DNA of 47,605 nucleotides from Actinomycetota bacterium (GTDB lineage: Bacteria; Actinomycetota; Thermoleophilia; Gaiellales; Gaiellaceae), in the NCBI GenBank assembly GCA_013697465.1, contig JACCWU010000173.1:1-47605 (forward strand). The letters are read 5' to 3'. Within the stretch, counting starts at the first letter, position 1. Every line of letters starts with the position of its first letter. The position numbers and the translations under genes are program-made. The notes below the pieces were generated by a model. That model searched no databases. It was not told the DNA's origin and saw only the letters and a list, made by a program, of their open reading frames with translations. This document shows positions 21,735-47,301 of this stretch, piece by piece.

Positions 21735-21778
21735 TCCAATGGGAGACTGAAACAACGTATGCTGCGGCTACCAAGCGG

Positions 21779-21877
21779 CCCGATGGAAAGAGCAGCGCCA
21801 AGGCCGCGAAAGCGGCCGTCTTCAGGGATTTTGCGCGAGCGGAATCTGCGCGAGCGGATTCCGATCTAGCGCAGCTA
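21779..21877 (-). repeat. Structured intergenic repeat, copy B (inverted relative to copies A/D; variant hairpin 1)
   Basis: The reverse complement aligns end to end with 29044-29140: ..TAGCTGCGCTAGATCGGAATCCGCTCGCGCAGATTCCGCTCGCGCAAAATCCCTGAAGACGGCCGCTTTCGCGGCCTTGGCGCTGCTCTTTCC.. Hairpin 2 is 21802-21817 and hairpin 1 is 21840-21863. Confidence 0.8.
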
Positions 21878-21972
21878 AGAGTGCGCGGAGGTGCGCCCGA
21901 CACCTTCCCCCTTGTCCGGCGCCCACCGCGCACCCCAACCACGCCGGTAGGCCTCGCGCTTCCGACCCCGGT

Positions 21973-21978
21973 TACGAT
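21973..21978 (+). promoter_or_regulatory. Candidate -10 box TACGAT, 8 nt before the aminotransferase ATG at 21987
   Basis: TACGAT-gcagctcg-ATG with no Shine-Dalgarno sequence. It lies downstream of repeat copy B. Confidence 0.45.
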
Positions 21979-21986
21979 GCAGCTCG

Positions 21987-23336: not shown

Positions 23337-23339
23337 CGC

Positions 23340-24473
23340 TTGTCCGACGTCGCCGAGCTGACCGCTCGACTGGTCGAGATCGAGTCGATCAACCCGAATG
23401 TCGTCGCCGGGGGATCCGGCGAGAGAGCGGTGGCCCGATTCGTGGCCGAGTGGTGCGAGCGAGCAGGTCTCGAGACAGCTCTCGAGGAAGCGGTGCCGGG
23501 CCGACCGAACGTGATAGCGGTTGCCCGCGGGACCGGCGGCGGGCGTGCGCTGATGCTGAACGCGCACATGGACACGGTCGGAGTCGCCGGCATGACCGGT
23601 CCGTTCGCTCCGCGAGTCGAGGGCGGGCGCCTCTACGGCCGCGGGGCCTACGACATGAAGGGAAGCCTCGCCGCCTGCATGCTCGCCACGGCGGAGGCAA
23701 GTCGCAGGCGTCGGGCCGGCGACGTCATGCTGACAGCGGTCGCCGACGAGGAGTTCGCGAGTGTAGGCACCGAGGCGGTCGCGAGGAGTCTCAGCGCCGA
23801 CGCGGCCATCGTCACCGAGCCGACGGAGCTGCAGGTTGCGGTTGCGCATCGCGGCTTCGTGCACCTCGAGATCGAGACGAAGGGACGAGCCGCTCATGGC
23901 TCGCGGCCGCATCTCGGGGTCGACGCGATCGCGAAGATGGGCCGCCTGCTCGTGGCGATCGAGCAGCTGGACGCCTCCCTGCGCGCCGACCCGACCCATC
24001 GGTACGTGGGAAGCGGGAGTGTGCACGCATCGCTCATCGAGGGCGGCCAGGAGTACTCGAGCTACCCGGCCCGGTGCGTCTTGCAGGCGGAACGCCGGAC
24101 GATCCCCGGCGAGACGGTCGCGCTGGTGGAGGGAGAGCTCCAGGAGATCGTCGCGCGCGCCGCCGCGGGCGACCCGGATTTCTCCGCCGAGGTCCGCGTG
24201 CTGGCTTCGCGCGAGCCCTTCGAAGCCGCCGAAAATTCGGAGATCGTCACCACAGTTCGCCGATCCGCAGCTTCGGTTCTCGGCTCCGAGCCGGATGTCG
24301 TCGGCGTCTCGTTCTGGGCGGACTCGGCGCTCCTCGCCGGCGCCGGAATCCCGACAGTGCTCTTCGGGCCGTCGGGCGAAGGCGCGCACGCCGAGGTGGA
24401 GTGGGTCGACGTCGAGTCTCTCGAGCGCTGCGTCGAGATCTACGCCGCGGTCGCCGGCGAGCTCTGCGGCTAG
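23340..24473 (+). CDS. M20-family deacylase (ArgE/DapE-like)
   Basis: TTG start 4 nt after the aminotransferase stop. LVEIESINP, MLNAHMDTVG, GRLYGRGAYDMKGSLAA and VADEEFASVG. Confidence 0.85.
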   Translation: MSDVAELTARLVEIESINPNVVAGGSGERAVARFVAEWCERAGLETALEEAVPGRPNVIAVARGTGGGRALMLNAHMDTVGVAGMTGPFAPRVEGGRLYGRGAYDMKGSLAACMLATAEASRRRRAGDVMLTAVADEEFASVGTEAVARSLSADAAIVTEPTELQVAVAHRGFVHLEIETKGRAAHGSRPHLGVDAIAKMGRLLVAIEQLDASLRADPTHRYVGSGSVHASLIEGGQEYSSYPARCVLQAERRTIPGETVALVEGELQEIVARAAAGDPDFSAEVRVLASREPFEAAENSEIVTTVRRSAASVLGSEPDVVGVSFWADSALLAGAGIPTVLFGPSGEGAHAEVEWVDVESLERCVEIYAAVAGELCG

Positions 24474-25264
24474 TCCGCGAGGAAGCGGGAGATCGCCTCT
24501 GCGGTCTCGTCCAATGCGTCCCAGAGGACGGTGTGCCCGCCCGGGACGAAGACGACCTCGAGCAGGTCGCCGAGCGCGGTCTGGTGCGCATCGAACAGGT
24601 GGTCGTAGGGCAGGTACGAGCGGTTCCCGAGAACGAGGAGCGTGGGCACCCGCACGCGCTCGAAGGGCGGCGGCTGCGACGCCATCTCGCCGTAGGCTGC
24701 CACGACCGCGGACTGGGAATACCGGTAGCGATAGAGTCCGTCCTCGCCGGCGACGAGGTGGCCTCGCAGCTCCTCTTCGACGAGCTCGCGAGGAGCTTCC
24801 TGGAGCTGGCTCTCGTCGTAGCGCCGGTCGATACCTTCCTCGAAGGAGACGTACGCGCGGTCCTTGCGTGCGTTCTCGGCCGCGAAGAGCGCGACCCCGG
24901 CCGGAACGAGGATCGCCGGGTCGAGGAGCACGAGTCGCGGCACGAGCTTGGGCGCGCGAGCCGCGAGCTCGAAGGCGAGTCTGCCGCCGAAGGAGTGGCC
25001 GATGAGCACGGCCGGCTCCGAGCCGACGGTCTCCACGATCGCCTCGAGCTGGGCCTCGATGTCCCACGGCGGCTCGTACCGCGACGATCCGTGACCGAGC
25101 AGATCCGGGGCAGCGAGGTGGAAGCCGGGCAGTGCCTCCGCCAGCTTCGCGAAGTGGCGGCCGTGGCTCGTCACGCCGTGGAGGCAGACCACGCGCGGCG
25201 CGGTGCGCTTTCCCCAGGTCTCGAGCGCGAGCGGCCGAAGCCAGCTCTCGAAGGCGAGCTTCAC
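24470..25264 (-). CDS. Alpha/beta-fold hydrolase
   Basis: I trimmed to the GTG at 25264, which overlaps the peroxiredoxin stop (GTGA). PRVVCLHGVTSHGRHF, nucleophile elbow LIGHSFGG, and a C-terminal GGH. The 84 upstream codons of ORF 24470..25516 are a shadow of the peroxiredoxin gene. Its stop overlaps the convergent M20 stop within CTAG (24470-24473). Confidence 0.85.
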   Translation of the reverse strand: MKLAFESWLRPLALETWGKRTAPRVVCLHGVTSHGRHFAKLAEALPGFHLAAPDLLGHGSSRYEPPWDIEAQLEAIVETVGSEPAVLIGHSFGGRLAFELAARAPKLVPRLVLLDPAILVPAGVALFAAENARKDRAYVSFEEGIDRRYDESQLQEAPRELVEEELRGHLVAGEDGLYRYRYSQSAVVAAYGEMASQPPPFERVRVPTLLVLGNRSYLPYDHLFDAHQTALGDLLEVVFVPGGHTVLWDALDETAEAISRFLAD

Positions 25265-25728
25265 CCCGCCGGCTGAAGCGTCTCGAGCGACTCGGGGACC
25301 ATTTCCGTCCGCCGCTCGTCCTTGATGTTGACGAGCGACCAGATGACGGCTCCGTCCTTGTCGATCAGAAAGGTGCCGCGGTGGGGGGCACCGTTCGTCT
25401 CGTTGAAGACGCCGTAGGCCTTGGCCGCGGCCCCGTGCGGCCAGAAGTCGGAGGCGAACGAGTACTCCGCCTCGAGCTCCTTCTTCCAGGCCTGCCGAGC
25501 GGCGGACGGGTCGCACGACACGAACACGATCTCGGTCTGCGCATTTCGGAATGCCTCCAGGTTCTCCTGGAGGTCGCGCGCCTCGTCCTCGCAGACCGGT
25601 GTGAACGCGAACGGGTGGAAGACGAGAAGGACGTTCGAGCGGCCGCTGAAGTCCGCGAGGCGGACACGCTCGTTCTTGTCTACCTCGAGATCGAACTCGG
25701 GCGCCCTGTCACCTGTCCGCACTGTCAT
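25261..25728 (-). CDS. Peroxiredoxin (AhpC/TSA family, AhpE/Bcp-like)
   Basis: APEFDL...LLVFHPFAFTPVCEDE (peroxidatic Cys in the PxxxTxxC context)...FLIDKDGAV. GAGGAA lies about 8 nt upstream of the ATG. Confidence 0.9.
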   Translation of the reverse strand: MTVRTGDRAPEFDLEVDKNERVRLADFSGRSNVLLVFHPFAFTPVCEDEARDLQENLEAFRNAQTEIVFVSCDPSAARQAWKKELEAEYSFASDFWPHGAAAKAYGVFNETNGAPHRGTFLIDKDGAVIWSLVNIKDERRTEMVPESLETLQPAG

Positions 25729-26998
25729 CGCCAGATTCCTCGCCAGCTTCCTCGCCGTTGCCGGAGGGCCGATAGTAACGACGCCCGCGCAGCGGCTCCG
25801 GCAGGTACTCCAGCTCGAAGCTGGCCGGATCGTCGTGGGGGTAGACGTAACCCTCGCCGTGCCCGCGGGCCTTCGCCGCCTGGGAGTGGCCCGTGGACCG
25901 GAGCATCGCCGGCGGTCTGGCGTTTCCGTGCTCGCGGACGTCCTTGCGTGCCTCCCAGATCGCGAGCGCCGATGCGTTCGACTTCGGCGCTCGAGCGAGG
26001 TAGATCGCGGCCTGCGAGAGATTGAGCTGGGCCTCGGGAAGCCCGACCAGCTCGAGCGCGTGCGCGGCCGCGACGGCCACGGTCAGCGCTCGCGGGTCGG
26101 CGTTCCCGACGTCCTCCGAGGCGAGGATGACCATGCGGCGCGCGATGAAACGGGGATCCTCGCCCGCCTCGAGCATCGCGGCGAGGTAGTAGACCGCCGC
26201 GTCCGCATCGCCGCCGCGCATCGACTTGATGAACGCGGACGCGAAGTCGTAGTGCTGGTCGCCCTTGCGGTCGTAGAGGAAGGGGCGCTTGCGCGATGCG
26301 TCGAGGACGTGCTCCTCGGTGATGGGCGCGCTCTCGGCGCTCGCTGTCGCATGCGCGAGCTCGAGGATCTGCAGCGCCGCCCGCGCGTCGCCGCCCGCCC
26401 GCTTTGCCACGAGCGCACGAACGTCCTCGCTCGCTTCGGCTTCGAGCGCGCCCGCGCCTCGGCGGACGATCTCGCCCAGCTCCTCCTCCGAAAGTGCGGT
26501 CAGCTCGATCACCGTGCAGCGGGAGAGGAGCGCGGAGTTGACTTCGAAGTAGGGGTTCTCGGTCGTGGCGCCGATCAGCGTCACGAGGCCGTCTTCCACC
26601 GCATGCAGCACCGAGTCCTGCTGACCTTTGTTGAAGCGGTGGATCTCGTCGATGAAGAGGATCGTCCGCAGGTCGTTGCCGCCGAGCCGGTCCCGGGCGC
26701 GAGCGATGACTGCGCGGACGTCGTCGACGCGAGCCGACACGGCCGAGAGCTCCTCGAAGACGGCGCCCGTGCGCTCGGCGACGATTCGCGCGATCGTCGT
26801 CTTCCCGGTTCCGGGCGGCCCGAACAGGATCATCGACGGCGGACGGTCCTGCTCGATCGCGAGCCGGAGCGCGGAGCGCTCGCCCAGAACGTGCTGTTGC
26901 CCGATGAGCTCGTCGAGAGCCCGAGGGCGAAGGCGGGTGGCAAGCGGGGCCGTCTCGGCCTGCCGCTCCTTCGCCGCCTCCGAAAAGAGGTCTCCCAC
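25709..26998 (-). CDS. rarA: Replication-associated recombination protein A (MgsA/RarA AAA+ ATPase)
   Basis: GTG at 26998: VGDLFSEAAKERQAETAPLATRLRPRALDELIGQQHVLG...MILFGPPGTGKTTIARIVA...ILFIDEIHRFNKGQQD...LIGATTENPYFEVN...DGDARAALQILE...HYD..SAFIKS.RG.D.DAA.YYL..M...GEDPRFI.RR. The upstream 130 codons of ORF 25709..27388 are a shadow of kynA. Confidence 0.9.
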   Translation of the reverse strand: MGDLFSEAAKERQAETAPLATRLRPRALDELIGQQHVLGERSALRLAIEQDRPPSMILFGPPGTGKTTIARIVAERTGAVFEELSAVSARVDDVRAVIARARDRLGGNDLRTILFIDEIHRFNKGQQDSVLHAVEDGLVTLIGATTENPYFEVNSALLSRCTVIELTALSEEELGEIVRRGAGALEAEASEDVRALVAKRAGGDARAALQILELAHATASAESAPITEEHVLDASRKRPFLYDRKGDQHYDFASAFIKSMRGGDADAAVYYLAAMLEAGEDPRFIARRMVILASEDVGNADPRALTVAVAAAHALELVGLPEAQLNLSQAAIYLARAPKSNASALAIWEARKDVREHGNARPPAMLRSTGHSQAAKARGHGEGYVYPHDDPASFELEYLPEPLRGRRYYRPSGNGEEAGEESGDDSADR

Positions 26999-27005
26999 TC
27001 GGCGA

Positions 27006-27011
27006 AGTATG
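27006..27011 (-). promoter_or_regulatory. Candidate -10-like box CATACT (reverse strand), 7 nt before the rarA GTG at 26998
   Basis: The reverse strand reads CATACT-tcgccga-GTG. Positions 2 (A) and 6 (T) are kept, but position 1 is C. It overlaps the plus-strand TATGCT box within the near-palindrome AGTATGCT. Confidence 0.35.
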
Positions 27012-27013
27012 CT
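27008..27013 (+). promoter_or_regulatory. Candidate -10 box TATGCT, 6 nt before the kynA GTG at 27020
   Basis: TATGCT-caggcc-GTG. The whole divergent spacer is only 21 nt. Confidence 0.45.
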
Positions 27014-27019
27014 CAGGCC

Positions 27020-27745
27020 GTGGCCGCCCACGAGGCTCCGGAGACCGAGGACTTCTCGCAGCCGATCCTCGAGGGAGGCGCGGCGTCCGACTACGAGCGG
27101 TACCTGAATACCGACGGGCTGCTCGCTCTCCAGAAGACGGCCGACGAGTGGGTGCATCGAGACGAGCTCCTCTTCCAGGTCACCCATCAGGCGTCCGAGC
27201 TCTGGTTGAAGCTCTCCTCGTCGGATGCCGCAGAGGCCGTGCGGCTGATCGAGGAAGGCGACCTGTCGGGCGCCCATCGGCTGCTCAGGCGCTCCGCGCT
27301 CTGTATTCGCTTCGTGATCGCTCAGCTCGAGATGCTCGAACACATGTCTCCATGGGAGTACCAGGAGATCCGCAAGGTGCTCGGACACGGATCCGGCTTC
27401 GACTCACCCGGCTGGAACGGGCTTCGGCATGCCTTCCCGAGGTTGGGCCAGGCATTCCACGCGGCGAGGCGCGCCGCCGGGCTCTCGCTCGCGGAGCTCT
27501 ACGTCCAGGGCCGCGAGCACGAGCACCTGTACCAGCTCGCAGAGGCGCTCATCGAGCTCGACGAGCAGGCGCAGCACTGGCGCCTGCGGCATTACCAGGT
27601 CGTCGCGCGGGTGATCGGCGACAAGGTCGTCGGCACGCAGGGCACTCCGGTCGAGCTGCTCGGGCGGCTCGTCGCAAAAACCTCGTTCCCCGAGCTCTGG
27701 GAAGTGCGCAACGAGCTGACCGCGCTCTCGAAGGAGTCGTCGTAG
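27020..27745 (+). CDS. kynA: Tryptophan 2,3-dioxygenase
   Basis: DYERYLNTDGLLALQ...HRDELLFQVTHQASELWLKL...MSPWEYQEIRKVLGHGSGFDSPGW...HWRLRHYQVVARVIG..VVGTQGT is the TDO family signature, including the proximal His region. It is the tail of ORF 25421..27745 from the first plausible in-frame start. Confidence 0.8.
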   Translation: MAAHEAPETEDFSQPILEGGAASDYERYLNTDGLLALQKTADEWVHRDELLFQVTHQASELWLKLSSSDAAEAVRLIEEGDLSGAHRLLRRSALCIRFVIAQLEMLEHMSPWEYQEIRKVLGHGSGFDSPGWNGLRHAFPRLGQAFHAARRAAGLSLAELYVQGREHEHLYQLAEALIELDEQAQHWRLRHYQVVARVIGDKVVGTQGTPVELLGRLVAKTSFPELWEVRNELTALSKESS

Positions 27746-29046
27746 TGGCAGTCGAAACCGCCGGCGGTCTCCGCGAGGAGGTGACGGAGCTCCTCCAAGA
27801 GCTCATCCGCATCGACACGGTGAATCCGCCCGGGAACGAGACGCGCGCAGGCGCGGCTCTGGTCGACTACCTCGCCCGAAGCGGCATCCAGGGCGGGCTC
27901 GTCGCGCGAGTCCCCGAGCGTGCGAACGTCGTCGCGCGGATTCCGGGTGGCGACGGGCCGTCGCTTGCCTTTCTTTCGCACACCGACACCGTCCTGGCCG
28001 ATCCCAGCGAGTGGGATCGCGACCCCTGGTCGGGAGATCTCGTCGACGGTGAGGTGTGGGGCCGCGGCGCTCTCGACATGAAGGGGCAGGTGGCCGCGTC
28101 CGCAGTCGCCTTCGCATCGCTCCAGCGCGAGGGCTTCTTCCCGTCGGGCGACCTCGTCTTCATGTCGGTTGCGGACGAGGAGGTGGGAGCCGGATTCGGC
28201 TTGAGCTGGCTCGCGGAAGCTCATCCGGACGCGGTCCGCTGCGACTACGCCGTGAACGAGGGGGGCGGAGACCGCCTCCTGCTCGGTGGCACTCCCGTGT
28301 ATCTCTGCGCGACAGCGGAGAAGATGTCGGCCCCGTTCGTTCTTCGGGTGCACGGGCGCAGCGGCCATGCGTCGATGCCGGGCATCGCTGACAACGCTCT
28401 CGTCAAGGCGGCGCGCTACGTGCAGGCGCTCGGAGCCTACGAACCGCCTCGAGAGCTCATCCCGGAGGCGCGGGGCTTTCTCGAAGCCGTTCTCGGGGAG
28501 GTTCCTCCGCTCGAGGACGCGGTGACGCGTGCGAACGAGCTCCACCCGCTGCTGGGCGCGCTCGTGCAGCCGCTCCTCGCGCTCACGCTGTCACCGACGA
28601 TGATCGACGCGTCTCACCAGCGGAACGTGATTCCGGCGCTCTGCGAGGTGACCGTCGACTGCCGCCTTCTCCCCGAGCAGACGCCCGCGGACGCCGAGCC
28701 GCTGATTCGAGCGGTGCTCGGCGACGGACCCTACGAGCTCGAGTGGAAGGAGGCGGTCGGGGGCACACGCTCGGAGCTCGGCACACCCCTGTGGGATGCG
28801 CTCGACTCGTTCGTCCAAGAGCTCGAGCCGGGCGCCAAGCTTGCCCCGATCGCCTGCCCGGGATTCACGGACAGCCACTTCCTGCGCGAGGCGTTCGGAA
28901 CCGTGGCTTACGGCTTCTTCCCGGTGAAGGCGATGGACGCGGAGCTCGCGACGAAGCTCGTCCACTCTGCGAACGAGCGCATTCCGGTGGACGACCTCGA
29001 GGCCGGCGTCCACATGCTGCGCCACGCCGCTCGGTCGCTGCTCTAG
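27745..29046 (+). CDS. M20/M25/M40-family peptidase
   Basis: GTG overlaps the kynA TAG by 1 nt. LIRIDTVNPPGNE, LSHTDTV, WGRGALDMKGQVAA and VADEEVGAGFG. The upstream 199 codons of ORF 27148..29046 are a shadow of kynA. Confidence 0.85.
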   Translation: MAVETAGGLREEVTELLQELIRIDTVNPPGNETRAGAALVDYLARSGIQGGLVARVPERANVVARIPGGDGPSLAFLSHTDTVLADPSEWDRDPWSGDLVDGEVWGRGALDMKGQVAASAVAFASLQREGFFPSGDLVFMSVADEEVGAGFGLSWLAEAHPDAVRCDYAVNEGGGDRLLLGGTPVYLCATAEKMSAPFVLRVHGRSGHASMPGIADNALVKAARYVQALGAYEPPRELIPEARGFLEAVLGEVPPLEDAVTRANELHPLLGALVQPLLALTLSPTMIDASHQRNVIPALCEVTVDCRLLPEQTPADAEPLIRAVLGDGPYELEWKEAVGGTRSELGTPLWDALDSFVQELEPGAKLAPIACPGFTDSHFLREAFGTVAYGFFPVKAMDAELATKLVHSANERIPVDDLEAGVHMLRHAARSLL

Positions 29047-29140
29047 TGCGCAAGACCGGAATCCGCGTGCGCGGATCCCGGTCGCGAAGATCCCTGAAGA
29101 CGGTCGCTCCGCGACCTCGGCGCTGCGTTTTCCAAGCGGT
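29044..29140 (+). repeat. Structured intergenic repeat, copy A
   Basis: TAGTGCGCAAGACCGGAATCCGCGTGCGCGGATCCCGGTCGCGAAGATCCCTGAAGACGGTCGCTCCGCGACCTCGGCGCTGCGTTTTCCAAGCGG. Hairpin 1 is 29054-29083 (14-bp arms, one mismatch). Hairpin 2 is 29102-29116 (GGTCGC-tcc-GCGACC). About 80% identical to copy D by eye. It fills most of the convergent spacer. Confidence 0.85.
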
Positions 29141-29161
29141 CGCTCGGCGCCCGCTCCTCGC

Positions 29162-29854
29162 TCAGCTGCGCCCGCCGGGTATCCGCTCGACGGTGTCTCC
29201 TCTGCCGACGAGGACGTCGGAGACCAGCTGTGGGGGAAAGAGCCCGTGGTCGACCACGCCCGCCGTCGAGGCAAGAGTGCTCGCCAGCGCACCGGGGTCG
29301 GCGACCGGGCCGAGCCAGTCGGCGAGGACGCCGCCGTCGGGCGTCGGCGGTGACTCGTGCCGGCGGGCGTGGCCGAGCCGGTCGAGCGTGGACGAGCTTC
29401 CGAACGCGAGCAGCTCGAGCGGGATGGGAGGTGCGACTCGCTCGACGAGCTTGTCCGCCGAGACGATCACGACGAAGCGCTCGGCAGCAGCCGCGACCAC
29501 CTTCTCGCGTGTGAGGGCGCCCCCTCCTCCCTTCACGACCCAGCCGTTCGCGGCGACCTGATCGGCGCCGTCGACGGCGAGGTCGAGCCTGGCGAGCGCG
29601 TGGTCTCCTTCGAACGGGAGGATGTCGAGGCCGAGCGCCCGCGCAGCGCTCTCGGTAGCCGGCGACGTCGCCACGCAGCGCAGCTCGAGCCTCCGGGCGG
29701 CGAGGGCGACGACGAAGTGCGCGACGGTCGATCCGGTGCCGAGACCGACTGACATCCCGTTCTCGACGAGCTCGGCCGCGGCCGCGGCGGCGACTCGCTT
29801 CTCGTGCTCGGCGGCAGACCCCACGTCGGCGGGCAACTCTACAGCGCTCCCCAC
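29162..29854 (-). CDS. rpiA: Ribose-5-phosphate isomerase A
   Basis: GLGTGSTVAHF, LAVDGADQV, VKGGGGALTREKVV and FVVIVSADKLV. GTG start (revcomp of cac 29852-29854). Confidence 0.9.
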   Translation of the reverse strand: MGSAVELPADVGSAAEHEKRVAAAAAAELVENGMSVGLGTGSTVAHFVVALAARRLELRCVATSPATESAARALGLDILPFEGDHALARLDLAVDGADQVAANGWVVKGGGGALTREKVVAAAAERFVVIVSADKLVERVAPPIPLELLAFGSSSTLDRLGHARRHESPPTPDGGVLADWLGPVADPGALASTLASTAGVVDHGLFPPQLVSDVLVGRGDTVERIPGGRS

Positions 29855-29862
29855 GCTTCGAT

Positions 29863-29868
29863 TAGCGT
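29863..29868 (+). promoter_or_regulatory. Candidate -10 box TAGCGT, 8 nt before the rpe ATG at 29877
   Basis: TAGCGT-ggacggcg-ATG. The divergent spacer to rpiA is only 22 nt. Confidence 0.4.
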
Positions 29869-29876
29869 GGACGGCG

Positions 29877-30566
29877 ATGGGCTGGAGCGACTGGGCACGC
29901 GACGTGGAGGTCGAGCCTTCGATCTACGCAGCCGACTTTTCGCGTCTCGGGGATCAGCTCGGCGGGCTCGCGGCCGCCGGGGCGCGAGTCTTCCACTTCG
30001 ATGTCGGCGACGGGCACTTCATCCCGGAGATCACGATCGGGCCGATCGTCCTCGCGTCGATTGCCCCGCTCGTCCGCGGCTGGAGTGGGGTCCTCGACTG
30101 CCATCTCATGGTCAGCGAGCCGGAGAAGCACTTCCAGGCCATAGCCGAGGCAGGAGGGAAGAGCGTCACGTTTCACGTGGAGGTCTCGGACGACCCTGCT
30201 CGGACGATCGCGCGTGCCCGATCGCTCGGTCTCGGGGTAGGAGTCGCCTTCAATCCGGAGACCGAGGTGGAGCACGCCGCCGCGGCGGCCGAGGGAGCCG
30301 ACCTCGTTCTCTGCATGTCTATTCATCCCGGCTACTCCGGCCAGAAGCTCATGCCCGAGGCCCCCGGCCGCATCGAGCAGCTCCGCAGCCTGCTCCCGGC
30401 GGACGTGCGGGTGCAGGTCGACGGCGGGATCAACGCCGAGACGATTCGTGCGGCTCGCGTCGCCGGCGCGGACCTGCTCGTCGCGGGCAGCGCGATCTTC
30501 TGGCGGGACGATCCGGCGGCAGCTCATGCCGACCTCACCGACCGGCTCGAGCACTCGCGTGGCTGA
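29877..30566 (+). CDS. rpe: Ribulose-phosphate 3-epimerase
   Basis: PSIYAADFSRLGDQL...FHFDVGDGHFIPEITIGP...LDCHLMV..PE...VTFHVE...GVAFNP.T...LVLCMSIHPGYSGQKL...VQVDGGIN...AGADLLVAGSAIF. Confidence 0.9.
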   Translation: MGWSDWARDVEVEPSIYAADFSRLGDQLGGLAAAGARVFHFDVGDGHFIPEITIGPIVLASIAPLVRGWSGVLDCHLMVSEPEKHFQAIAEAGGKSVTFHVEVSDDPARTIARARSLGLGVGVAFNPETEVEHAAAAAEGADLVLCMSIHPGYSGQKLMPEAPGRIEQLRSLLPADVRVQVDGGINAETIRAARVAGADLLVAGSAIFWRDDPAAAHADLTDRLEHSRG

Positions 30567-32187
30567 ACCGCTGCGTGAGACCGCTGCCTGGCGGCGCCTC
30601 GAATGGCACCACGCGGAGGTGTGCGACCTGCATCTCAGGGGCCTCTTCGACGGTGACCCCAGCCGGGGCGAGCGACTCTCGGCCGAGGCGGCCGGCCTCC
30701 ATCTCGACTACTCGAAGCACCGCGTGACCGACGACACGCTTCAGCTGCTGCGGAACCTCGCGACGCAGCGGAGGCTCCAGGACCAGATTCAGGCCATGTT
30801 CCGAGGCGAGCGCGTGAACGTATCGGAGGGCCGCGCCGCGCTCCACGTCGCGCTCCGGATGCCACGCTCGCGGTCGGTGGTGGTCGACGGAGCCGACGTC
30901 GTGAAAGAGGTGCACGCCGAGCTCGATCGGTTCATCGGCTTCGCAGACCAGGTGCGCTCCGGCGAGCGGACGGGCGCGACCGGCCGCCCGATCAGGGCCG
31001 TGGTCAACATCGGGATCGGCGGGAGCGACCTCGGCCCGGCGATGACCTGCGAGGCGCTCGCGCCCTACGCGACGAGTGAGATCATCGTCCGTTTCGTCTC
31101 GAACGTCGATCCCGCGGATCTCACGGAGGCGACGCGCGATCTCGAGCCGAGCGAGACCCTCTTCGTCGTCGTCTCGAAGACGATGACGACCGTCGAGACG
31201 ACTGAGAATGCGAAAGCCGCGCGAGCGTGGATCGCATCCGCTCTCGGCGAGGAGGCTTCGGGGCGGCACTTCACCGGCGTCGCCGCGGATGTCGCGGCGG
31301 GCGCGAGGCTCGACATCTCGCCGGAGAGCATGTTTCGCATCTGGGACTGGGTCGGCGGGCGGACGTCGCTCTGCTCGGCAGTCGGCCTCTCCGTCGCGAT
31401 CGCCGTGGGCGGCGAGCGCTTTCGCGAGCTGCTCGCCGGGTTCAGGGCGATGGACGAGCACTTCGCCTCAGCGCCGCTCGGCGCGAACCTGCCGGCGATC
31501 TCCGGGCTGCTCTCGCTCTGGTACCGGAACTTCTTCGGGACGCAGACCACGGCGGTCTTCCCCTACAGCCACGCGCTCCGGCTCCTTCCCGCGTACCTGC
31601 AACAGCTCTGGATGGAGTCGAACGGAAAGCGGGTGACCGCGACGGGCGAGCCGGTCGGCCTCGACACGGGCTCGGTCCTCTGGGGAGGCGCGGGCACGAA
31701 CGCCCAGCACGCGGTCTTCCAGCTTCTCCACCAGGGGACGGTCCTGTGCCCGGCTGATCTCATCGGCTTCGCGCAGCCCGCCGGTGACGCTGCCGCGCGC
31801 CACGACCTCCTGGCGGCGAATCTCCTCGCACAGGCCGAGGCGCTCGCCTTCGGCCGGACGGAAGACGAGCTTCGCGAAGCCGGCGTGGCGGAGGAGACGA
31901 TCCCGCACCGCGTCATGCCCGGGAACAGGCCCACGTCGCTCGTCCTCGCCGAGAGGCTCACCCCCGCGACCCTCGGCGCTCTGATCGCGCTCTACGAGCA
32001 CAGCGTCTTCACCCAGGCGGCGATCTGGGGAATCGACCCTTTCGACCAATGGGGGGTCGAGCTCGGCAAGGAGCTCGCTGCCAGGATCGCTCCCGAGCTC
32101 GCGCCGGGCTGGAAGCACGAGCTCCACCACGACTCCTCCACGAACGCCTCGATCGGCCGGTATCGGCGGCTCCGGGATGGGAAGTAG
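30559..32187 (+). CDS. pgi: Glucose-6-phosphate isomerase
   Basis: GTG at 30559 overlaps the rpe end. DYSKHRVTD, GRAALHVALR, NIGIGGSDLGPAM, VVSKTMTTVET, WDWVGGRTSL, QLWMESNGK, GTNAQHAVFQLLHQG and DQWGVELGK. Confidence 0.9.
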   Translation: MAEPLRETAAWRRLEWHHAEVCDLHLRGLFDGDPSRGERLSAEAAGLHLDYSKHRVTDDTLQLLRNLATQRRLQDQIQAMFRGERVNVSEGRAALHVALRMPRSRSVVVDGADVVKEVHAELDRFIGFADQVRSGERTGATGRPIRAVVNIGIGGSDLGPAMTCEALAPYATSEIIVRFVSNVDPADLTEATRDLEPSETLFVVVSKTMTTVETTENAKAARAWIASALGEEASGRHFTGVAADVAAGARLDISPESMFRIWDWVGGRTSLCSAVGLSVAIAVGGERFRELLAGFRAMDEHFASAPLGANLPAISGLLSLWYRNFFGTQTTAVFPYSHALRLLPAYLQQLWMESNGKRVTATGEPVGLDTGSVLWGGAGTNAQHAVFQLLHQGTVLCPADLIGFAQPAGDAAARHDLLAANLLAQAEALAFGRTEDELREAGVAEETIPHRVMPGNRPTSLVLAERLTPATLGALIALYEHSVFTQAAIWGIDPFDQWGVELGKELAARIAPELAPGWKHELHHDSSTNASIGRYRRLRDGK

Positions 32188-33265
32188 CTCCGAGAAGCTC
32201 GAGCTGCACGAGCCGGAGGAGGCGTTCCGGAGGATCGAGGAGTGGCTGCGTGCGCGGGGGTTCTTCGAACCGGGTGGGGAACGACTCGCCGCCGATCTCT
32301 ACCTCGGCTACGGGCTCTCGCACGTCCTTCGCCGGGAGCGCACGCCCGCTCCTCCCGAGCCGTGCCGCCTCCCTCTCGCAGCCTGCGAGATTCGCCGGGA
32401 GACAACGCTCGTGGCTCAGAGCCACAACGAGCTCGAGCTGGGTGCGTGGGAGCCCACTTGGGCCGCTGCCGAGTACGCTGCAGCAGTCGAGCGGGTGCGA
32501 GAGGCGATTGCGCGGGGAGACGTCTACCAGGTCAATCTCGTCCAGCACCTGTCCGCGCCGATCGACGGCCACCCTCGGGCTCTCGCCGGCTCGGTCGCTG
32601 CACGGCTGGGCCATTTGGGCCCTCTCCATCGCGAGCCGTTCGTCGGCGAAAGCTGGGCGGTGGTGTCGGCCTCGCCCGAGCTCTTCCTGGAGCGCAGCGG
32701 ACGACGCGTCCGGACGATGCCGATCAAGGGCACTCGCCCGCGCGGCGGAGGTGCCGAGCTGCGCGAGTCCGCGAAGGACGTAGCCGAGCACGTCATGATC
32801 GTCGACCTCGAGCGCAACGACCTCTCTCGCGTGTGCGAAGCCGGGACGATTCGCTGGCCGGAGCTGATGGCGACGCGCGAGCTCGCCGGAGTCGAGCACA
32901 TGGTGTCGACGGTCGAGGGGACGCTCCGCCGTGGAGTCGAGCTCGCCGAGCTGCTCGAAGCGACGTTTCCCGGCGGCTCGGTCACCGGTGCGCCCAAGAT
33001 CGCCGCGCTCGATCTCATCGCAGGGCTCGAGCCGGTCGGGCGTGGAGCCTCGATGGGAGCACTGGGCCGCGTGTACGGCAACGGCGACCTCGAGCTTGCG
33101 CTGACGATCCGGACGTTCGCCGTCGCCGGTGGCCGCATCCACCTGTGGGTGGGGGGCGGCGTCGTGTGGGACTCCGAGCCGCTCGCGGAGGTCGAGGAGT
33201 CGTGGACGAAGGCGCGGCCTCTCCTCGACGCACTCGGCATGCCCCAGCCAGTGAGCGTGCCGTGA
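32177..33265 (+). CDS. pabB: Aminodeoxychorismate synthase component I-like chorismate-binding enzyme (short form)
   Basis: GDVYQVNLVQ, SASPELFLER..GRRVRTMPIKGTRPRG, KD.AEHVMIVDLERNDLSRVC, FPGGSVTGAPK, RG...GA.G and LTIRT. Confidence 0.85.
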   Translation: MGSSSEKLELHEPEEAFRRIEEWLRARGFFEPGGERLAADLYLGYGLSHVLRRERTPAPPEPCRLPLAACEIRRETTLVAQSHNELELGAWEPTWAAAEYAAAVERVREAIARGDVYQVNLVQHLSAPIDGHPRALAGSVAARLGHLGPLHREPFVGESWAVVSASPELFLERSGRRVRTMPIKGTRPRGGGAELRESAKDVAEHVMIVDLERNDLSRVCEAGTIRWPELMATRELAGVEHMVSTVEGTLRRGVELAELLEATFPGGSVTGAPKIAALDLIAGLEPVGRGASMGALGRVYGNGDLELALTIRTFAVAGGRIHLWVGGGVVWDSEPLAEVEESWTKARPLLDALGMPQPVSVP

Positions 33266-34092
33266 CGGCTCTCGCGCTTGCCGTGACGGGCCGCGGCCTC
33301 TGCGATCCGAGCGAGCCCGTCGTGCGCGCGGACGACGAGGCGGTTCTCCGTGGGCGGGCGGCGTTCGAGACGATCCGCGTGTACTCGGGACGGCCCTTCC
33401 GCCTGAGCGCACACCTGGACCGGCTCGAAGCCTCGGCGGCGGGCATCGCGCTCCCCCGATTCGATCGAGCGGAGCTCACGGAGCTGGTCTCGCTCGTCCT
33501 TCCGCAGAGCGGCGCGGACGACGCGGTGCTGCGGCTCGTCTGGACTGCAGGCCCCGCGGAAGGCCCTCCGGCGGGACTCGCGCTCCTCAGCGGGGTGCCC
33601 GTGTGGATCGACGCCGCGCGCGAGCGTGGAGCGCGCGCCGTCTCCCTGCTGGGCGTTCGAGCGGCCGCGCCGTGGCTCCTGCCCGGTGTCAAGTCGACGA
33701 GCTATGCGGTGAACATGGCCGCCGAGGCGGAGGCAAAGCGGCGCGGCGCGGACGAGGCGGTCTTCGTCGACGCCGACGGCGTCGTGCTCGAGGGCACGGT
33801 CACGAATGTCTGGTGGCGCCTGGAGGAAACGCTGTACACGCCCGCGCTCGAGCTCGGAATCCTCGCCGGCGTGACGCGGGCCGCGCTACTCGAGCTCGCA
33901 CCAGCGCGCGGCTACGTCGTCGAAGAAGGCGCGTACCGTCTCCCGCTGTTGCTCGAGGCGGAGGAGGCCTTCACCTCGTCGTCCGTGCGGGAGATCATGC
34001 CCGTCGTCGAGGTCGACGGACGCGCCCTGGAGCGCGGCCCGGCGGCCGACGAGCTCCAGCAAGCGCTGCGCGCGCTCGCCGCCGCAGAGTGA
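33262..34092 (+). CDS. Class IV aminotransferase-fold enzyme, probably aminodeoxychorismate lyase
   Basis: GTGA overlap with pabB. GRAAFETIRVYSGRPFRLSAHLDRL, GVKSTSY..NMAAEAEAKRRGADEAVFVD, VLEGTVTNVWW, LAGVTR and FTSSSVREIMPV. The function is inferred from coupling to pabB. Confidence 0.8.
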   Translation: MTALALAVTGRGLCDPSEPVVRADDEAVLRGRAAFETIRVYSGRPFRLSAHLDRLEASAAGIALPRFDRAELTELVSLVLPQSGADDAVLRLVWTAGPAEGPPAGLALLSGVPVWIDAARERGARAVSLLGVRAAAPWLLPGVKSTSYAVNMAAEAEAKRRGADEAVFVDADGVVLEGTVTNVWWRLEETLYTPALELGILAGVTRAALLELAPARGYVVEEGAYRLPLLLEAEEAFTSSSVREIMPVVEVDGRALERGPAADELQQALRALAAAE

Positions 34093-34110
34093 CGAATCCG
34101 GCGCGGTCGC

Positions 34111-34116
34111 TACCCT
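34111..34116 (+). promoter_or_regulatory. Candidate -10 box TACCCT, 7 nt before the GTG at 34124
   Basis: TACCCT-ctgactc-GTG in the 31-nt gap after the pabC-like gene. Confidence 0.4.
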
Positions 34117-34123
34117 CTGACTC

Positions 34124-35967: not shown

Positions 35968-35969
35968 CA

Positions 35970-37088: not shown

Positions 37089-37097
37089 GACGGCTTG

Positions 37098-40104: not shown

Positions 40105-40324
40105 CCAGACGTTGATACGAATCGAGGTTGGGCTCGACGGGGGGCAGATCCTCAGCTGGCTCGTCACTTCCGCGAGCGCCGACGACCTCGAGCGAGCGCT
40201 GAACGCGGGCGACGCGGGTGCTGCCGCCCTCGAGGCGGAGGACGGGAAGATCTACCTCGCCCTCCCGCGCGTCCTCTACATGAAGCGCTTCGCCCGCGAA
40301 GGCCGAGTCGGCTTCGAGCTGTAG
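40097..40324 (+). CDS. DUF3107-like small protein (75 aa)
   Basis: GTG at 40097 overlaps the epimerase end by 8 nt. IRIEVGLDGGQILSWLVTSASADDLERAL....ALEAEDGKIYLALPRVLYMKRFAREGRVGF resembles my recollection of actinobacterial DUF3107 (..IKIG......LVF.S......VE..V..AL......L.L.DE.GR.FL.....IAYVEIG....RRVGF). Confidence 0.55.
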   Translation: MADQTLIRIEVGLDGGQILSWLVTSASADDLERALNAGDAGAAALEAEDGKIYLALPRVLYMKRFAREGRVGFEL

Positions 40325-40330
40325 AGGGTT

Positions 40331-40425
40331 GCGGTGAAATCCCATCGGCCCGACTGCGAAGCAGCCGGCTTCAGGGGTTCTGCGCGAATGGAATCCGCGC
40401 TCGCGGATTCCATTCTGCGCGATAA
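40331..40425 (-). repeat. Structured intergenic repeat, copy C (inverted; extended hairpin 1)
   Basis: The reverse complement reads ..TTATCGCGCAGAATGGAATCCGCGAGCGCGGATTCCATTCGCGCAGAACCCCTGAAGCCGGCTGCTTCGCAGTCGGGCCGATGGGATTTCACC.. Hairpin 1 is about 40382-40421 (18-19 bp arms with a 1-nt bulge). Hairpin 2 is 40350-40368. Confidence 0.8.
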
Positions 40426-40429
40426 CTGA

Positions 40430-42057: not shown

Positions 42058-42891
42058 TCAGCCGGCGGCGACGAGCACTGCGCCCACAAGCGCCACAGCG
42101 CCACCGACGCGCTTGCCCGCGCTCAACCGCTCCGCGAGCACGATCCGGGCCAGCAGGATGGTCACGATGGGATACAGGGAACTGAGGACGGCGACGATCC
42201 CGGGCGTCCCCCTGGTCGTTGCGAATGCGACGCCGACGTTGGCGCCGGTGTCGAAGGCTCCGACCGCGACGAGCGCCGGCAAGTGCCTGCGCGACGCGCG
42301 GAGCGACGTAGAGGTGAGCAGAGCGAAGACCAGGGCGAGCGTCACCGCCGACGAGCGCGCGGCGACGACGGCCCAGGGGGCGCTCTCGTCGGACCCGGCG
42401 TCGATCCCGACGATGAAGCTCCCGAAGCCCAGTGCTGCAACGACCGCCAGGCCTGCGCCCGCGGCGATCCGCCGCCCCCCGCCCTCGGACGGCTCGCGCG
42501 AGAGCGTCATGATTCCCGCAAGGACGAGCGCGATGCCGAGCCACTGCAACGCTGCCGGCGTAACGCCACGCGCGGCGTCGACGGCCAACGGCACCACGGG
42601 CGCGGCCGCGCTGATCGGCGCGACGATGCCCATGGCCCCGACGGCAAGACCGCGATAGAGGGCGCCGAGCCCGATCAGGCTCGCGACGCCCGCGGCCGCT
42701 GCAGGGAGAAGCTCGGAGACGCCTGGAAACGGGTCGTTCGCCAGCCACACCCAGAGGACGACACCCGCCAGGCCGACCGCCTGCGAGATCGCGAGCACTG
42801 CGAGCACGGCGAGGCGCCGTGCTGCGAGACCGCCGAGGAAGTCGCCGATGCCCCAGAGAAGCGCGCCGGAGAGCGCCAGCAACGCGGCCAT
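42058..42891 (-). CDS. EamA/DMT-family transporter
   Basis: MAALLALSGALLWGIGDFLGGLAARR... Ten TM segments arranged as two EamA repeats. Confidence 0.85.
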   Translation of the reverse strand: MAALLALSGALLWGIGDFLGGLAARRLAVLAVLAISQAVGLAGVVLWVWLANDPFPGVSELLPAAAAGVASLIGLGALYRGLAVGAMGIVAPISAAAPVVPLAVDAARGVTPAALQWLGIALVLAGIMTLSREPSEGGGRRIAAGAGLAVVAALGFGSFIVGIDAGSDESAPWAVVAARSSAVTLALVFALLTSTSLRASRRHLPALVAVGAFDTGANVGVAFATTRGTPGIVAVLSSLYPIVTILLARIVLAERLSAGKRVGGAVALVGAVLVAAG

Positions 42892-42900
42892 CGAGTGTTG

Positions 42901-43740
42901 CTAGTCGTCGCCGACGGGCCGGGTCGCCGCCTGTGCGTCGAGCTGGTTTGCGTGGTACAGGACGGCGGCCTCGGCGGTGCGAGCGGCCTGGCGGTCGTGA
43001 TGGCACGCGATCGCATGGAGAAGCTCGGACAGGGCGGTCGGGTCGAGATCGGCCGCGCGCTCCTCGATCATCCGCAGCCCGAGGTGGACATGTCCGAGCA
43101 GGCGTCCTTCCTCGGTCTGGACGAAAGCAGGCCCGGAACGGAGCTCGCGAACACGGCCCACGTCGTGGAGCAGCGCGCACGCGAGCAGGAGGTCGGCGCG
43201 AAGCCTGGGATGCAGCTGGGCCGTCTCACGGCAAAGCGTCGCGACCCCGACCGAATGCTCGAGCAACCCTCCGGCGTAGCCGTGGTGACCGTCGACTCCA
43301 GCCGCCGGAAGCGTGCGAAAGCGCGTGCGGATCTCCGGATCCCGTACGAAGGATTCCACGAGCTCGGCGAGACCTGGATGAGCAATCTCGGCGGCGAGGA
43401 ACTCGAAGAAGCCGTCCAGCTCGTCGGCATCTCGCCGCAGGACGGGCGTCAGCGCGGCGGGGTCGGCCTCCTCGGCCGCCTCGAGTGCGCGTATCTGGAG
43501 CTGCAGCTTGCCGCCGAAGCGCTCCACGCGGCCCAGCACTCGCACCGCGTCCCCCTGGTCGAAGCGCGTGTCGAGAAGCTCGACGTCGCTCCAGACCCGA
43601 GCCTCGATCCGGCCGGTCGAGTCGGCGAGCTCGAGTGCAAGGTACGAAGCCCCAGCTCGAGTTCGGCGACGTTCCTTCTTCGTGACCGCGAACACCGCGT
43701 CGACGGTCCGGTCCTCGGCGAGCTCGGCAATCGGGGACAC
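42901..43740 (-). CDS. YhaM-like 3'-5' exoribonuclease (OB fold + HD domain)
   Basis: GTG at 43740: VSPIAELAEDRTVDAVFAVTKKERRRTRAGASYLALELADSTGRIEARVW (OB fold)...HHGYAGGLLEHSVGVA...LLHDVGR...GHV...HH (HD). The upstream 242 codons of ORF 42901..44466 are a shadow of the DUF1015 gene. Confidence 0.8.
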   Translation of the reverse strand: MSPIAELAEDRTVDAVFAVTKKERRRTRAGASYLALELADSTGRIEARVWSDVELLDTRFDQGDAVRVLGRVERFGGKLQLQIRALEAAEEADPAALTPVLRRDADELDGFFEFLAAEIAHPGLAELVESFVRDPEIRTRFRTLPAAGVDGHHGYAGGLLEHSVGVATLCRETAQLHPRLRADLLLACALLHDVGRVRELRSGPAFVQTEEGRLLGHVHLGLRMIEERAADLDPTALSELLHAIACHHDRQAARTAEAAVLYHANQLDAQAATRPVGDD

Positions 43741-46028: not shown

Positions 46029-46274
46029 GTGGCTGTCTTCAAGAACCTCTTCTCGTTTCTGTTCCAGCGCTCGACCGGCGAGGAGCACGTCGCCCGGTAC
46101 GTCGTCCGGGAGCATGACCGAGGCCGAACGCTCGAGGAGATCATGCAGGACCGCTACGTGCAGAACAGGCTGACGCCGGAGCAGCAGAAGCGCCTGCTCG
46201 ACCGGCCCGAGATCATCGAGTCGATCTCGCGCGACAGCGTCGAGGCCGCCAAGGCATCCATAGAGCCTGGCTAG
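46029..46274 (+). CDS. Hypothetical small protein (81 aa)
   Basis: MAVFKNLFSFLFQRSTGEEHVARYVVREHDRGRTLEEIMQDRYVQNRLTPEQQKRLLDRPEIIESISRD... Lys/Glu/Gln-containing composition that is atypical of shadow ORFs here. No family recognised. Confidence 0.5.
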   Translation: MAVFKNLFSFLFQRSTGEEHVARYVVREHDRGRTLEEIMQDRYVQNRLTPEQQKRLLDRPEIIESISRDSVEAAKASIEPG

Positions 46275-46368
46275 TGCGCAAGACCGCAATCCGCTAGCGC
46301 GGATTCCGGTCGCGCGCAACCCCTGAAGACGGGCGCTTCGCGCCCTTCGCTCTGCGCTTTCCCACTGG
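46272..46368 (+). repeat. Structured intergenic repeat, copy D
   Basis: TAGTGCGCAAGACCGCAATCCGCTAGCGCGGATTCCGGTCGCGCGCAACCCCTGAAGACGGGCGCTTCGCGCCCTTCGCTCTGCGCTTTCCCACTGG. Hairpin 1 is 46282-46311. Hairpin 2 is 46331-46345 (GGGCGC-ttc-GCGCCC). Confidence 0.85.
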
Positions 46369-46371
46369 CAG

Positions 46372-47301
46372 CTACAGAGCCAGACCAACGCCGCGCTCGC
46401 GGGCCAGTCGCAGCGCCTCGGCGCCGAGCGCGACGTCCCACGCCGCGATCCCGTTCGACTTGAAGACGACGACGTCAGAGTCCGACTGACGACCCTGGAC
46501 TTGACCTGCGACGACCTCGTGCAGCTCGTGGACCTCGAGCCAGTCGAGGATCCCGGAGCCGACCGGCTCGATGAGGTCGCCGGACTCGAGCCTCGCCTGC
46601 TCGAGGGAGTCGCAGCAAATGAACGCGGCGCGTTCGAGCACGACGTTGTCGAGCTCCCGGCGGCTCGGCTGGTTCGCTCCCGCGGCGACGACGAGCGAAC
46701 CCGGCTGGAGCCACTCGCCCCGGAGGACGGGATCCTTCGAGCTCGTGATCGTGACGACGACGTCCTGCGTCGCCGCGTCCCGGTGACTCTCCGCCGGCTC
46801 GGCGTCGACACGCTCGCAGAATGTCGACAGCCGTTCGGGTGTTCGGCAGTACGCGACAACACGCTCGATCGAAGGTACGGCGGCGCGAACGCACGCGACC
46901 TGGGTCTCCGCCTGGTATCCGCACCCGATGACGCCGAGCGTGCGAGCGTTCGCCTTCGCCAGGTGACGGGCGGCGACTCCGCTGGCGGCGCCCGTTCGCA
47001 GCCGCCCGAGGAGATCGGCCTCGATCACGGCCTCGAGCACCGGTCGCGAGACGTCGAAGAGGCAGACCACGAAGGCAGCGCCTTCTGCGAAGGCCGAGTA
47101 GAGCTTCCCGCCCGCGAGACCGGCGCCGAGATCGGACGCGGCCATGTCGGCCAGTGCTCCTCCGTCGAGGCGCAGCCGGCGGCGTGGCGCGTTCTCGACC
47201 TCACCCGCCGCGATCCGGCGGAAGCAGTCGTCGATCGCCGCGACGGCGTCCGCCGGGGTGAGCAGCGACGCGACATCGGTTTCTGTCAGGTAGAGGGGCA
47301 T
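46372..47301 (-). CDS. Ornithine cyclodeaminase / mu-crystallin family protein
   Basis: From the ATG at 47301: MPLYLTETDVASLL...A.....F......G.....PRR...........A......G.K......LGRLRTGAASGVAARHLA....TLGVIGCGYQA..Q......V......V..Y.R... Confidence 0.9.
   Translation of the reverse strand: MPLYLTETDVASLLTPADAVAAIDDCFRRIAAGEVENAPRRRLRLDGGALADMAASDLGAGLAGGKLYSAFAEGAAFVVCLFDVSRPVLEAVIEADLLGRLRTGAASGVAARHLAKANARTLGVIGCGYQAETQVACVRAAVPSIERVVAYCRTPERLSTFCERVDAEPAESHRDAATQDVVVTITSSKDPVLRGEWLQPGSLVVAAGANQPSRRELDNVVLERAAFICCDSLEQARLESGDLIEPVGSGILDWLEVHELHEVVAGQVQGRQSDSDVVVFKSNGIAAWDVALGAEALRLARERGVGLAL

Follow-up and report, generated by a model that had tools for sequence, protein, structure and literature searches.

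What is the two-hairpin sequence that recurs between unrelated genes in a genome of the Gaiellaceae: a structured RNA fixed in place, or a repeat that moves? The DNA analyzed here, called the window, is the whole of a 47,605-nucleotide (nt) stretch (contig JACCWU010000173.1, assembly GCA_013697465.1) from an Actinomycetota bacterium of the Gaiellaceae, a member of the Gaiellales, Thermoleophilia, according to a taxonomy look-up. An initial annotation, made from these letters alone, had reported four non-coding segments of about 95 nt (copies A to D) that align over their full length, and had suggested that selection acts on their structure. Read directly at the places given there, the four segments aligned end to end with a mean column identity of 77%, and all of them lie in intergenic DNA of a window with about 69% G+C. 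The element is undescribed as far as the resources that we searched show, and it represents a new family among repeats of a familiar kind rather than a new RNA class. It is probably a non-autonomous dispersed repeat of the Gaiellales, comparable to repetitive extragenic palindromes (REPs) and MITEs (miniature transposable elements with inverted repeats), which enters gene junctions that contain TAG and keeps a folded core under constraint.

Compensatory change in both hairpins

The unit of approximately 100 to 125 nt has five parts: a head, in most cases preceded by a (C)TAG, a 40-nt hairpin (H1), the single-stranded linker CCCTGAAG, a 20-nt hairpin (H2), and a poorly conserved tail. H1 is a near-perfect palindrome with a 4-nt spacer, the spacer of H2 has 3 nt, and the two hairpins have TCCGCT..CGCGG in common. 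Direct reading gave the same H2 arms as the initial annotation (GGTCGC/GCGACC in copy A, GGGCGC/GCGCCC in D, GGCCGC/GCGGCC in B, and CCGGCTGC/GCAGTCGG in C) and the same covariation in the outer part of H1, GACCGG/CCGGTC versus GAATGG/CCATTC. The annotated places of the units were right as well, but not their lengths, since comparison with empty orthologous sites and better-preserved relatives showed that the units are longer.

Relatives were sought with an exact pattern (the H1 3' arm, linker, and CCCTGAAG) in one genome per species, 185,579 species in total. Because of loop-length gaps, RNAalifold returned a meaningless 5-pair structure on the raw MAFFT alignment; hence, the pairs were assigned by hand and verified by pair counts. 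Among 109 distinct copies, 90.9% of the cells were paired, and 130 double-change cells were counted, compared with 32.6 after shuffling. None of 500 shuffles attained the observed percentage paired, double-change counts, or covariation score, and 5 of the 500 reached the observed value for further pair types. Shifting the partner by 1 to 3 columns lowered the pairing of the same copies to 25 to 50%. One H1 pair was CG in 58 of them, AU in 17, UA in 17, and GC in 12, and the outer H2 pair was GC in 57, CG in 27, and AU in 10. As the search pattern had fixed most of the H1 3' arm, we repeated the count on pattern-free copies. In 32 of these, Watson-Crick pairing reached 91.5% in H1 versus 81.8% after shuffling (maximum of 84.8% in 1000 shuffles) and 89.2% in H2 versus 80.2%. 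Additionally, a model-based alignment of 60 copies enriched for pattern-free sequences was 93.2% paired, with 19 of 25 pairs changed on both sides and 120 double-change cells versus about 30 after shuffling, a value that 0 of 500 shuffles matched. These counts on 109, 60, and 32 copies show that both hairpins are maintained by compensatory change and not by recent copy-paste, as had been proposed from the four copies. The linker (CCCTGAAG, occasionally CCCTAAAG) is unpaired and nearly invariant, and H2 carries a T.C mismatch in 56 of the 109 copies.

The covariation also has a strand preference. In the orientation first annotated, A.C mismatches outnumbered G.U mismatches by 66 to 26 in the first set and by 19 to 7 in H1 of the pattern-free set. 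An A.C on the noted strand is a G.U on the other strand, so the excess points to wobble pairs tolerated on the reverse complement. The A.C to G.U counts were 16:6 where the noted strand is the sense strand of co-directional neighbours, 20:5 where it is their antisense strand, 20:6 in convergent spacers, and 13:2 in divergent spacers. Since the excess appears in every gene context, the folded strand appears to be a property of the element, independent of neighbouring transcription.

Conservation is concentrated in the folded part. The 75-nt core had a mean pairwise identity of 83% over all copy pairs, and the four-fold sites of ychF were saturated (identity of 0.46 to 0.59) between loci that share the filled insertion site upstream of this gene. 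In an orthologous trio (L003, L035, and L007), the cores were 93 to 96% identical, the coding flanks 77 to 88%, and the tails about 50 to 85%; in a fourth ortholog (L006, 5830-5902), three pairs of H1 and one of H2 are changed, each with compensation. That the core is conserved and the tail is not, within the same copies, agrees with post-insertion purifying selection on the core, or gene conversion of it, and does not fit the neutral decay of a dead transposon. Some sites might reflect continuous turnover, in which conserved master copies re-insert at hot spots; window copy C, for example, is only 69 to 72% identical to the copies of L151 and L176.

No known RNA family accounts for the fold, in agreement with the initial annotation. 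An Rfam 15 scan of the whole window at gathering thresholds found a tRNA alone (11115-11187, minus strand, 75.2 bits; the sole Rfam match in the window), and when copies A and C and L044 were scanned permissively, generic hairpins alone were returned, with at most 22 bits versus cut-offs of 37 to 380. A hammerhead ribozyme was considered and rejected: copies A, B, and D have a CUGAAGA similar to the CUGANGA core, but the base after GAAG is paired and covaries (GC 57, CG 27, AU 10, the outer H2 pair), no GAAA follows H2, and Rfam was empty. A CsrA-type site, whose motif is fitted by CAGGGAU on the reverse strand, was dropped without evidence for CsrA.

Range of the family and insertion at gene junctions

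The exact-pattern scan yielded 101 stretches, all from metagenome-assembled genomes (MAGs) labelled Gaiellaceae, Gaiella, Thermoleophilia, Thermoleophilaceae, or unclassified Actinomycetes/Actinomycetota, and the element is present in at least 50 Gaiellaceae/Thermoleophilia genomes. The genome of the window was not among the 101 stretches, and the nearest fetched DNA had approximately 75 to 82% nucleotide identity to it. A profile search found 151 copies in 785 kb of pattern-hit loci plus the window, and 11 copies in 520 kb of metagenome contigs that had been chosen solely for encoding a relative of ychF. None of these 11 copies matches the exact pattern, which shows that the pattern heavily under-counts; as a rough inference, the copy number is on the order of tens per genome. 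Nearly all copies (141 of 144) were intergenic, with every gene-orientation class represented. Searches of viral contigs and plasmids revealed nothing similar, and literature searches by organism, repeat type, and sequence string found no description of the element.

Two orthologous sites show presence and absence of the element. At the ychF site, an upstream small gene ends in TAG and ychF starts 3 to 9 nt further on in most of 80 orthologous loci. This site is empty in the closest relatives of the window (77 to 79% amino-acid identity) and is filled in the window, L176, L151, and L178, where all copies have one orientation, as well as in L109. The second site is empty in the window (42880..42935), where it is a spacer between two co-directional minus-strand genes; the element occupies it in L141/L150, L139, and L168, the nearest relatives of each lineage being empty, and in L115 it holds a 172-nt MITE. 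The eight filled alleles at the two sites have a stop-type triplet on both sides (TAG/TAG, TGA/TGA, TGA/TAA, TAA/TAG, and others), whereas the empty alleles have one. In the 16 nt before H1, CTAG was the top 4-mer (31 of 112 copies, at a variable distance of 1 to 11 nt), and it followed the tail in 22 of 112, compared with 3 of 112 in the control. GTAG before the palindrome was not enriched (7 of 112 versus 7 of 112 in the control). A 4-bp CTAG duplication as a general rule was rejected, as CTAG stands at both ends in only about 10% of copies.

One MAG contains identical copies whose flanks are unrelated (L019, L052), and head-to-tail arrays of 2 to 4 units have periods of 103 to 146 nt. Such arrays were found at L057:5378-5656, L076:1052-1594, L036:547-1058, L013:1290-1467, and L090:5946-6173. 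The array unit takes in a few bases of the flank, suggesting that the arrays grew by local tandem duplication rather than by successive insertions. Mosaics were also seen: L073:6292-6560 joins H1 to an unrelated module of about 95 nt in a unit that is duplicated with a 146-nt period, and L065:5470-5590 (minus strand) has two tandem H1 hairpins, a CCCTAAG-like linker, and a TTTCACAATGAAGCCT tail but no H2.

The 172-nt MITE found at the second site in L115 belongs to a second repeat family, which has no copy in the window. It is an almost full-length palindrome, 70 to 74% identical to its own reverse complement, with nearly perfect terminal inverted repeats of about 22 nt (GGTGCTTGATCGGAAATT) and TTAG or CTAG flanks. 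Copies lie at L159:9261-9432 (the ychF site), L115:6421-6592 (the second site) and about 1351-1487, L037:2353-2522, and L166:6478-6649. The last 19 to 20 nt of the element tail in L019, L052, and L065 (ATTTCACATCAAGCCTCTAG) match the right end of the L166 MITE copy, the GATGTG variant included. A weight matrix trained on MITE ends alone gave at least 12 bits in 6 of 112 tails (L019, L052, L065, L009, window copy C, and L168) and in 0 controls, and in most weaker tails the best matrix position was still 5 to 7 nt after the core. The left arm GCGCAAGAYCGGAAWCC resembles the MITE repeat GCTTGATCGGAAA. We read the tail as a putative decayed terminal repeat, in which case the lack of inverted repeats would be true of most present-day copies and not of the origin of the family.

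The initial annotation had noted no open reading frame (ORF), no terminal inverted repeats, and no target-site duplication. This description is correct on the face of the four copies but does not extend across the family, whose flanks are enriched in (C)TAG and of which a minority of copies, including window copy C, keep a recognisable terminal repeat. The immobile structured RNA without transposon-like features that it implied is contradicted by presence and absence at orthologous sites, the (C)TAG and stop flanks, the tandem arrays, the right end in common with a true MITE, and the occurrence of all orientations relative to genes.

Copies in the window and frames across the element

The H1 palindrome GGAATCCGCNNGCGCGGATTCC, searched on both strands with at most 3 mismatches, had exactly four matches in the window, which are the four copies (chance expectation of 0.01), and exact window matches to CCCTGAAGMCGG were confined to the same copies. 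A covariance model built from the 109 homologues recovered all four with 89.6 to 97.3 bits and found no further real copy in the whole window, the remainder being reverse-strand palindrome shadows or hits with E > 0.05. Window genes were called with a self-trained codon-usage caller and Pfam and are approximate.

Copy A (29044..29141, plus strand, 89.6 bits) lies between two convergent genes, an M20 peptidase gene (27745-29046, plus strand) and rpiA (29162-29854, minus strand), and the first three bases of the unit are the TAG stop of the peptidase gene. On the plus strand, its H1 (29048..29087) reads GCGC-AA-GACCGGAATCCGC, loop, GCGGATCCCGGTC-GCGA, the conserved unpaired linker CCCTGAAG occupies 29092..29099, and H2 (29099..29118) reads GGTCGC-TCC-GCGACC with outer GA/TC pairs. 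At the zwf/rpiA junction of L166 (about 740-760) and L124 (about 990-1010), the convergent genes share a palindromic CTAG in which their two TAG stops overlap; in the window, zwf is absent between the peptidase gene and rpiA, and copy A occupies that place. Such a shared CTAG seems to be the type of target that the repeats use.

Copy B (21768..21878, minus strand, 97.3 bits) is located between two co-directional plus-strand genes, encoding an amidohydrolase (20328-21734) and a class-III aminotransferase (21987-23336). Its H1 is at 21833-21872, the linker at 21820-21827, and H2 at 21800-21820, and the tail runs to a TAG at 21768-21770. Copy C (40322..40429, minus strand, 94.5 bits) fills the spacer between the co-directional plus-strand genes for a 75-amino-acid (aa) protein (40097-40324) and ychF (40430-41374), with H1 at 40382-40420, the linker at 40369-40376, and H2 at 40350-40368. 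The tail of this copy, ATTTCACCGCAACCCTCTA, runs into the stop codon of the 75-aa gene (40322-40324) and matches the MITE terminal repeat with 16.7 bits. Copy D (46271..46375, plus strand, 92.5 bits) again separates convergent genes, an 81-aa ORF (46029-46274, plus strand) and an ornithine-cyclodeaminase-like gene (46372-47301, minus strand); H1 is at 46276-46315, the linker at 46321-46328, and H2 at 46328-46347. The CTAG of its head contains the stop of the plus-strand gene, and the CTA of its tail (46372-46374) is the stop of the minus-strand gene. Unit ends thus abut or overlap the stop codons of their neighbours, the upstream gene having its TAG within the head in A and D, and the C and D tails finishing in the stop codon that belongs to the gene reading towards the tail.

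The flanking genes are unrelated housekeeping genes and the orientations are mixed, which rules out a gene-specific leader or riboswitch. An integron attC site was rejected as well, the copies being 6 to 11 kb apart, in both orientations, and among housekeeping genes. At the empty second site, our caller placed a plus-strand gene at 42895-44868; relatives show a minus-strand gene ending in CTA at 42901-42903, directly upstream of the start of the minus-strand gene 42058-42891.

In eight co-directional alleles inspected by hand, an open frame of the coding strand crosses the whole element, and its stop abuts or overlaps the downstream start, an arrangement reminiscent of the mycobacterial interspersed repetitive units discussed below. 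These are the window (40322-40432), L176, L151, L178, and L109 at the ychF site and L141, L139, and L168 at the second site. The stop/start junctions of the crossing frames read TGA-GTG, TAG C GTG, TGATG, and TAGATG, and the frames often begin at TGATG or TAATG, or at a GTG at most 5 codons from the upstream stop. Among 31 tight co-directional cases, 17 had a crossing frame that stops at most 12 nt from the next start, with the head beside the start in 16 of the 17; a start codon near the upstream stop as well was found in only 8 of the 31. The terminal stop of the frame is largely explained by the (C)TAG at the end of the element and was therefore not taken as a mechanism. Readthrough extension of the upstream protein was rejected, as the bridging frames are spread over all three frames. 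The L109 copy upstream of ychF (1163-1253) has a deletion of H1 and keeps H2, linker, and head; the frame that continues the phase of the upstream gene still has no stop until a TGA located 7 nt ahead of the ychF start.

Origin of the repeat, alternatives and known systems

For a dispersed repeat that inserts at TAG-containing junctions, the following course can be proposed. The element would be moved in trans by a transposase encoded elsewhere, the likeliest candidate being the enzyme of the related 172-nt MITE, which may duplicate TA or TAG at a (C)TAG target. Copies are gained or lost at orthologous sites and insert in the short gap that separates a stop codon from the neighbouring gene, stop-to-start or stop-to-stop; afterwards, the H1-linker-H2 core would be constrained and the tail would decay. 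The constraint would act on one strand, the reverse complement of the noted orientation, folded as a single-stranded nucleic acid. Propagation could use this strand as its substrate, or the strand could be a transcript in which hairpins at gene ends affect the 3' ends of mRNA, as in REP, enterobacterial repetitive intergenic consensus (ERIC), and Correia elements.

Several observations weigh against this account. Stop codons on either side are what points to a duplication, which is often imperfect (TGA/TAA, TAA/TAG), only about 5% of copies have a recognisable right terminal repeat, and the family-wide similarity of the left arm to the reverse-complemented tail was not above the control. Similarity between copies was hardly higher within a genome than between genomes (0.87 versus 0.84), and only 16 of 84 copies had their nearest neighbour in the same genome, so there is no sign of recent bursts. 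Two common variants dominate the strand-asymmetric mismatches and could be inherited. No transposase was found by tblastn with an approximate IS200 TnpA query in 1.3 Mb of fetched DNA, and the genes adjoining the arrays look like housekeeping genes, with no transposase seen among them. Of the features that define a MITE, small size (100 to 125 nt), lack of coding capacity, and presence or absence at orthologous sites (two sites) were observed; as inverted ends and duplication are only partly demonstrable, membership is unproven. The missing GTAG tag, the missing inverted doublets, and the failure to find a REP-associated tyrosine transposase (RAYT) in the 1.3 Mb searched mean that the element is not a REP or a REPIN.

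A host cis-acting RNA module that does not move, with hairpins that terminate transcription, block 3' exonucleases, or direct intercistronic processing, would agree with the preservation of the core at orthologous sites despite saturated four-fold sites in ychF and diverged tails. It would likewise agree with the position of the copies, since 88 of 138 tails and 76 of 138 heads face the 3' end of a gene and stop codons abut the element, and with between-species copies being as alike as copies within a genome. We nevertheless regard it as unlikely. The copies occur in both orientations, with 19 cases in divergent spacers, and the strand that tolerates wobble does not depend on the direction of the flanking genes. 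An intrinsic terminator was rejected because no U-tract directly follows the hairpin: TTTCC lies 10 to 15 nt after H2, and a terminator scan of 21000-40900 gave 5 sites, none at a copy; no sigma-70 promoter was found at the copies either. Finally, presence/absence polymorphism, arrays, mosaics, and the MITE-type end indicate mobility, to which a role as cis-acting RNA can be added by exaptation but which it cannot replace. A combined version, in which the core is an exapted module that arrived at stop-codon junctions in the manner of a MITE and came under purifying selection at dozens of loci across the order, with a fixed folded strand, is conceivable but rather doubtful. If true, it would imply a transcript of its own or a strand-specific role as single-stranded DNA (ssDNA) and a dedicated protein that reads the CCCTGAAG linker and the T.C mismatch.

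Mobility itself could take another route, that of a REP- or REPIN-type element moved as ssDNA by a hairpin-recognising HUH tyrosine transposase (RAYT or IS200/IS605-like). The sub-terminal hairpins with their common TCCGCT..CGCGG, the lack of usable inverted ends in most copies, and the strand-specific mismatch tolerance in every gene context are in line with this, as is the TAG beside the palindrome that supplies stop codons, since the ends of GTAG-tagged REPs often give the flanking ORF a TAG stop (PMC3733652). However, GTAG is not enriched here, the tag being a CTAG 1 to 11 nt away, no Y1 transposase was found in the 1.3 Mb with the approximate query, the arrays are direct and not inverted REP pairs, and the tail shares homology with the end of a MITE whose 22-nt inverted repeats are perfect, as is typical of DDE transposons. 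We therefore consider this route improbable. The compensated arms might even have arisen without selection, by template switching or intra-hairpin repair that keeps inverted repeats symmetric (quasi-palindrome correction). Templated correction is known to act on closely spaced inverted repeats, and the near-perfect palindrome of H1 with its 4-nt spacer and the 3-nt spacer of H2 have this form. Such correction leaves the invariant unpaired linker CCCTGAAG, the T.C mismatch of H2, the asymmetry between A.C and G.U, and the contrast between core and tail unexplained, and we judge it very improbable.

A mobile origin with a constrained core remains our preferred explanation. The Gaiellales are abundant soil actinobacteria with, to our knowledge, almost no cultured members and no described repeat families. 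In their MAGs, the structured repeat serves as a marker with which to follow genome dynamics and type strains, and it accounts for assembly breaks as well as for odd "intergenic hairpins" at the ends of genes. Moreover, it offers a test case for small mobile elements that colonise tiny stop-to-start junctions of compact, high-G+C genomes and leave operons unbroken. If the core is indeed under host-level selection, a MITE-derived module would have turned into a widespread cis element in the Actinomycetota.

Among known systems, REPs and bacterial interspersed mosaic elements (BIMEs) are similar in being G+C-rich extragenic palindromes at gene ends, present in many copies, single or clustered, and with compensated stem changes. 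They are found in enterobacteria and pseudomonads in association with RAYTs, and they are thought to stabilise upstream mRNA; we know of no REPs described in the actinobacterial order of the host. The present element differs from the 20- to 40-nt REP palindrome in being a fixed two-hairpin composite of about 100 nt, in having CTAG at a variable distance and direct arrays instead of GTAG and alternating orientations, and in that no RAYT was found in the 1.3 Mb searched with an approximate query. ERIC elements, or intergenic repeat units (IRUs), of enterobacteria are imperfect palindromes of about 127 bp, located in transcribed intergenic regions, that affect mRNA decay. The Gaiellales repeat shares with them the intergenic position, conservation across genera, and presence or absence at orthologous sites, but it has no sequence similarity to ERIC, which forms one long hairpin, and has two hairpins with a conserved single-stranded linker.

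The repeat unit of pneumococcus (RUP; 107 bp, Streptococcus pneumoniae) and the Correia repeat enclosed element (CREE) of Neisseria are of similar size, intergenic, and non-coding and show insertion polymorphism. Small MITEs of this kind form hairpins in transcripts, duplicate a TA-containing target, and share ends with related elements (review: PMC10969869). Most of their copies have clear terminal inverted repeats, and RUP has a known candidate transposase, whereas here about 5% of copies keep a recognisable right repeat and conservation is internal. Mycobacterial interspersed repetitive units (MIRUs) differ in having no hairpins and in being defined by small coupled ORFs, a coupling that is not general in our element, where a start codon lies near the upstream stop in only 8 of 31 cases. 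The element resembles MIRUs in being actinobacterial and intergenic within operons, in forming head-to-tail arrays, and in having ends that overlap the upstream stop and the downstream start.

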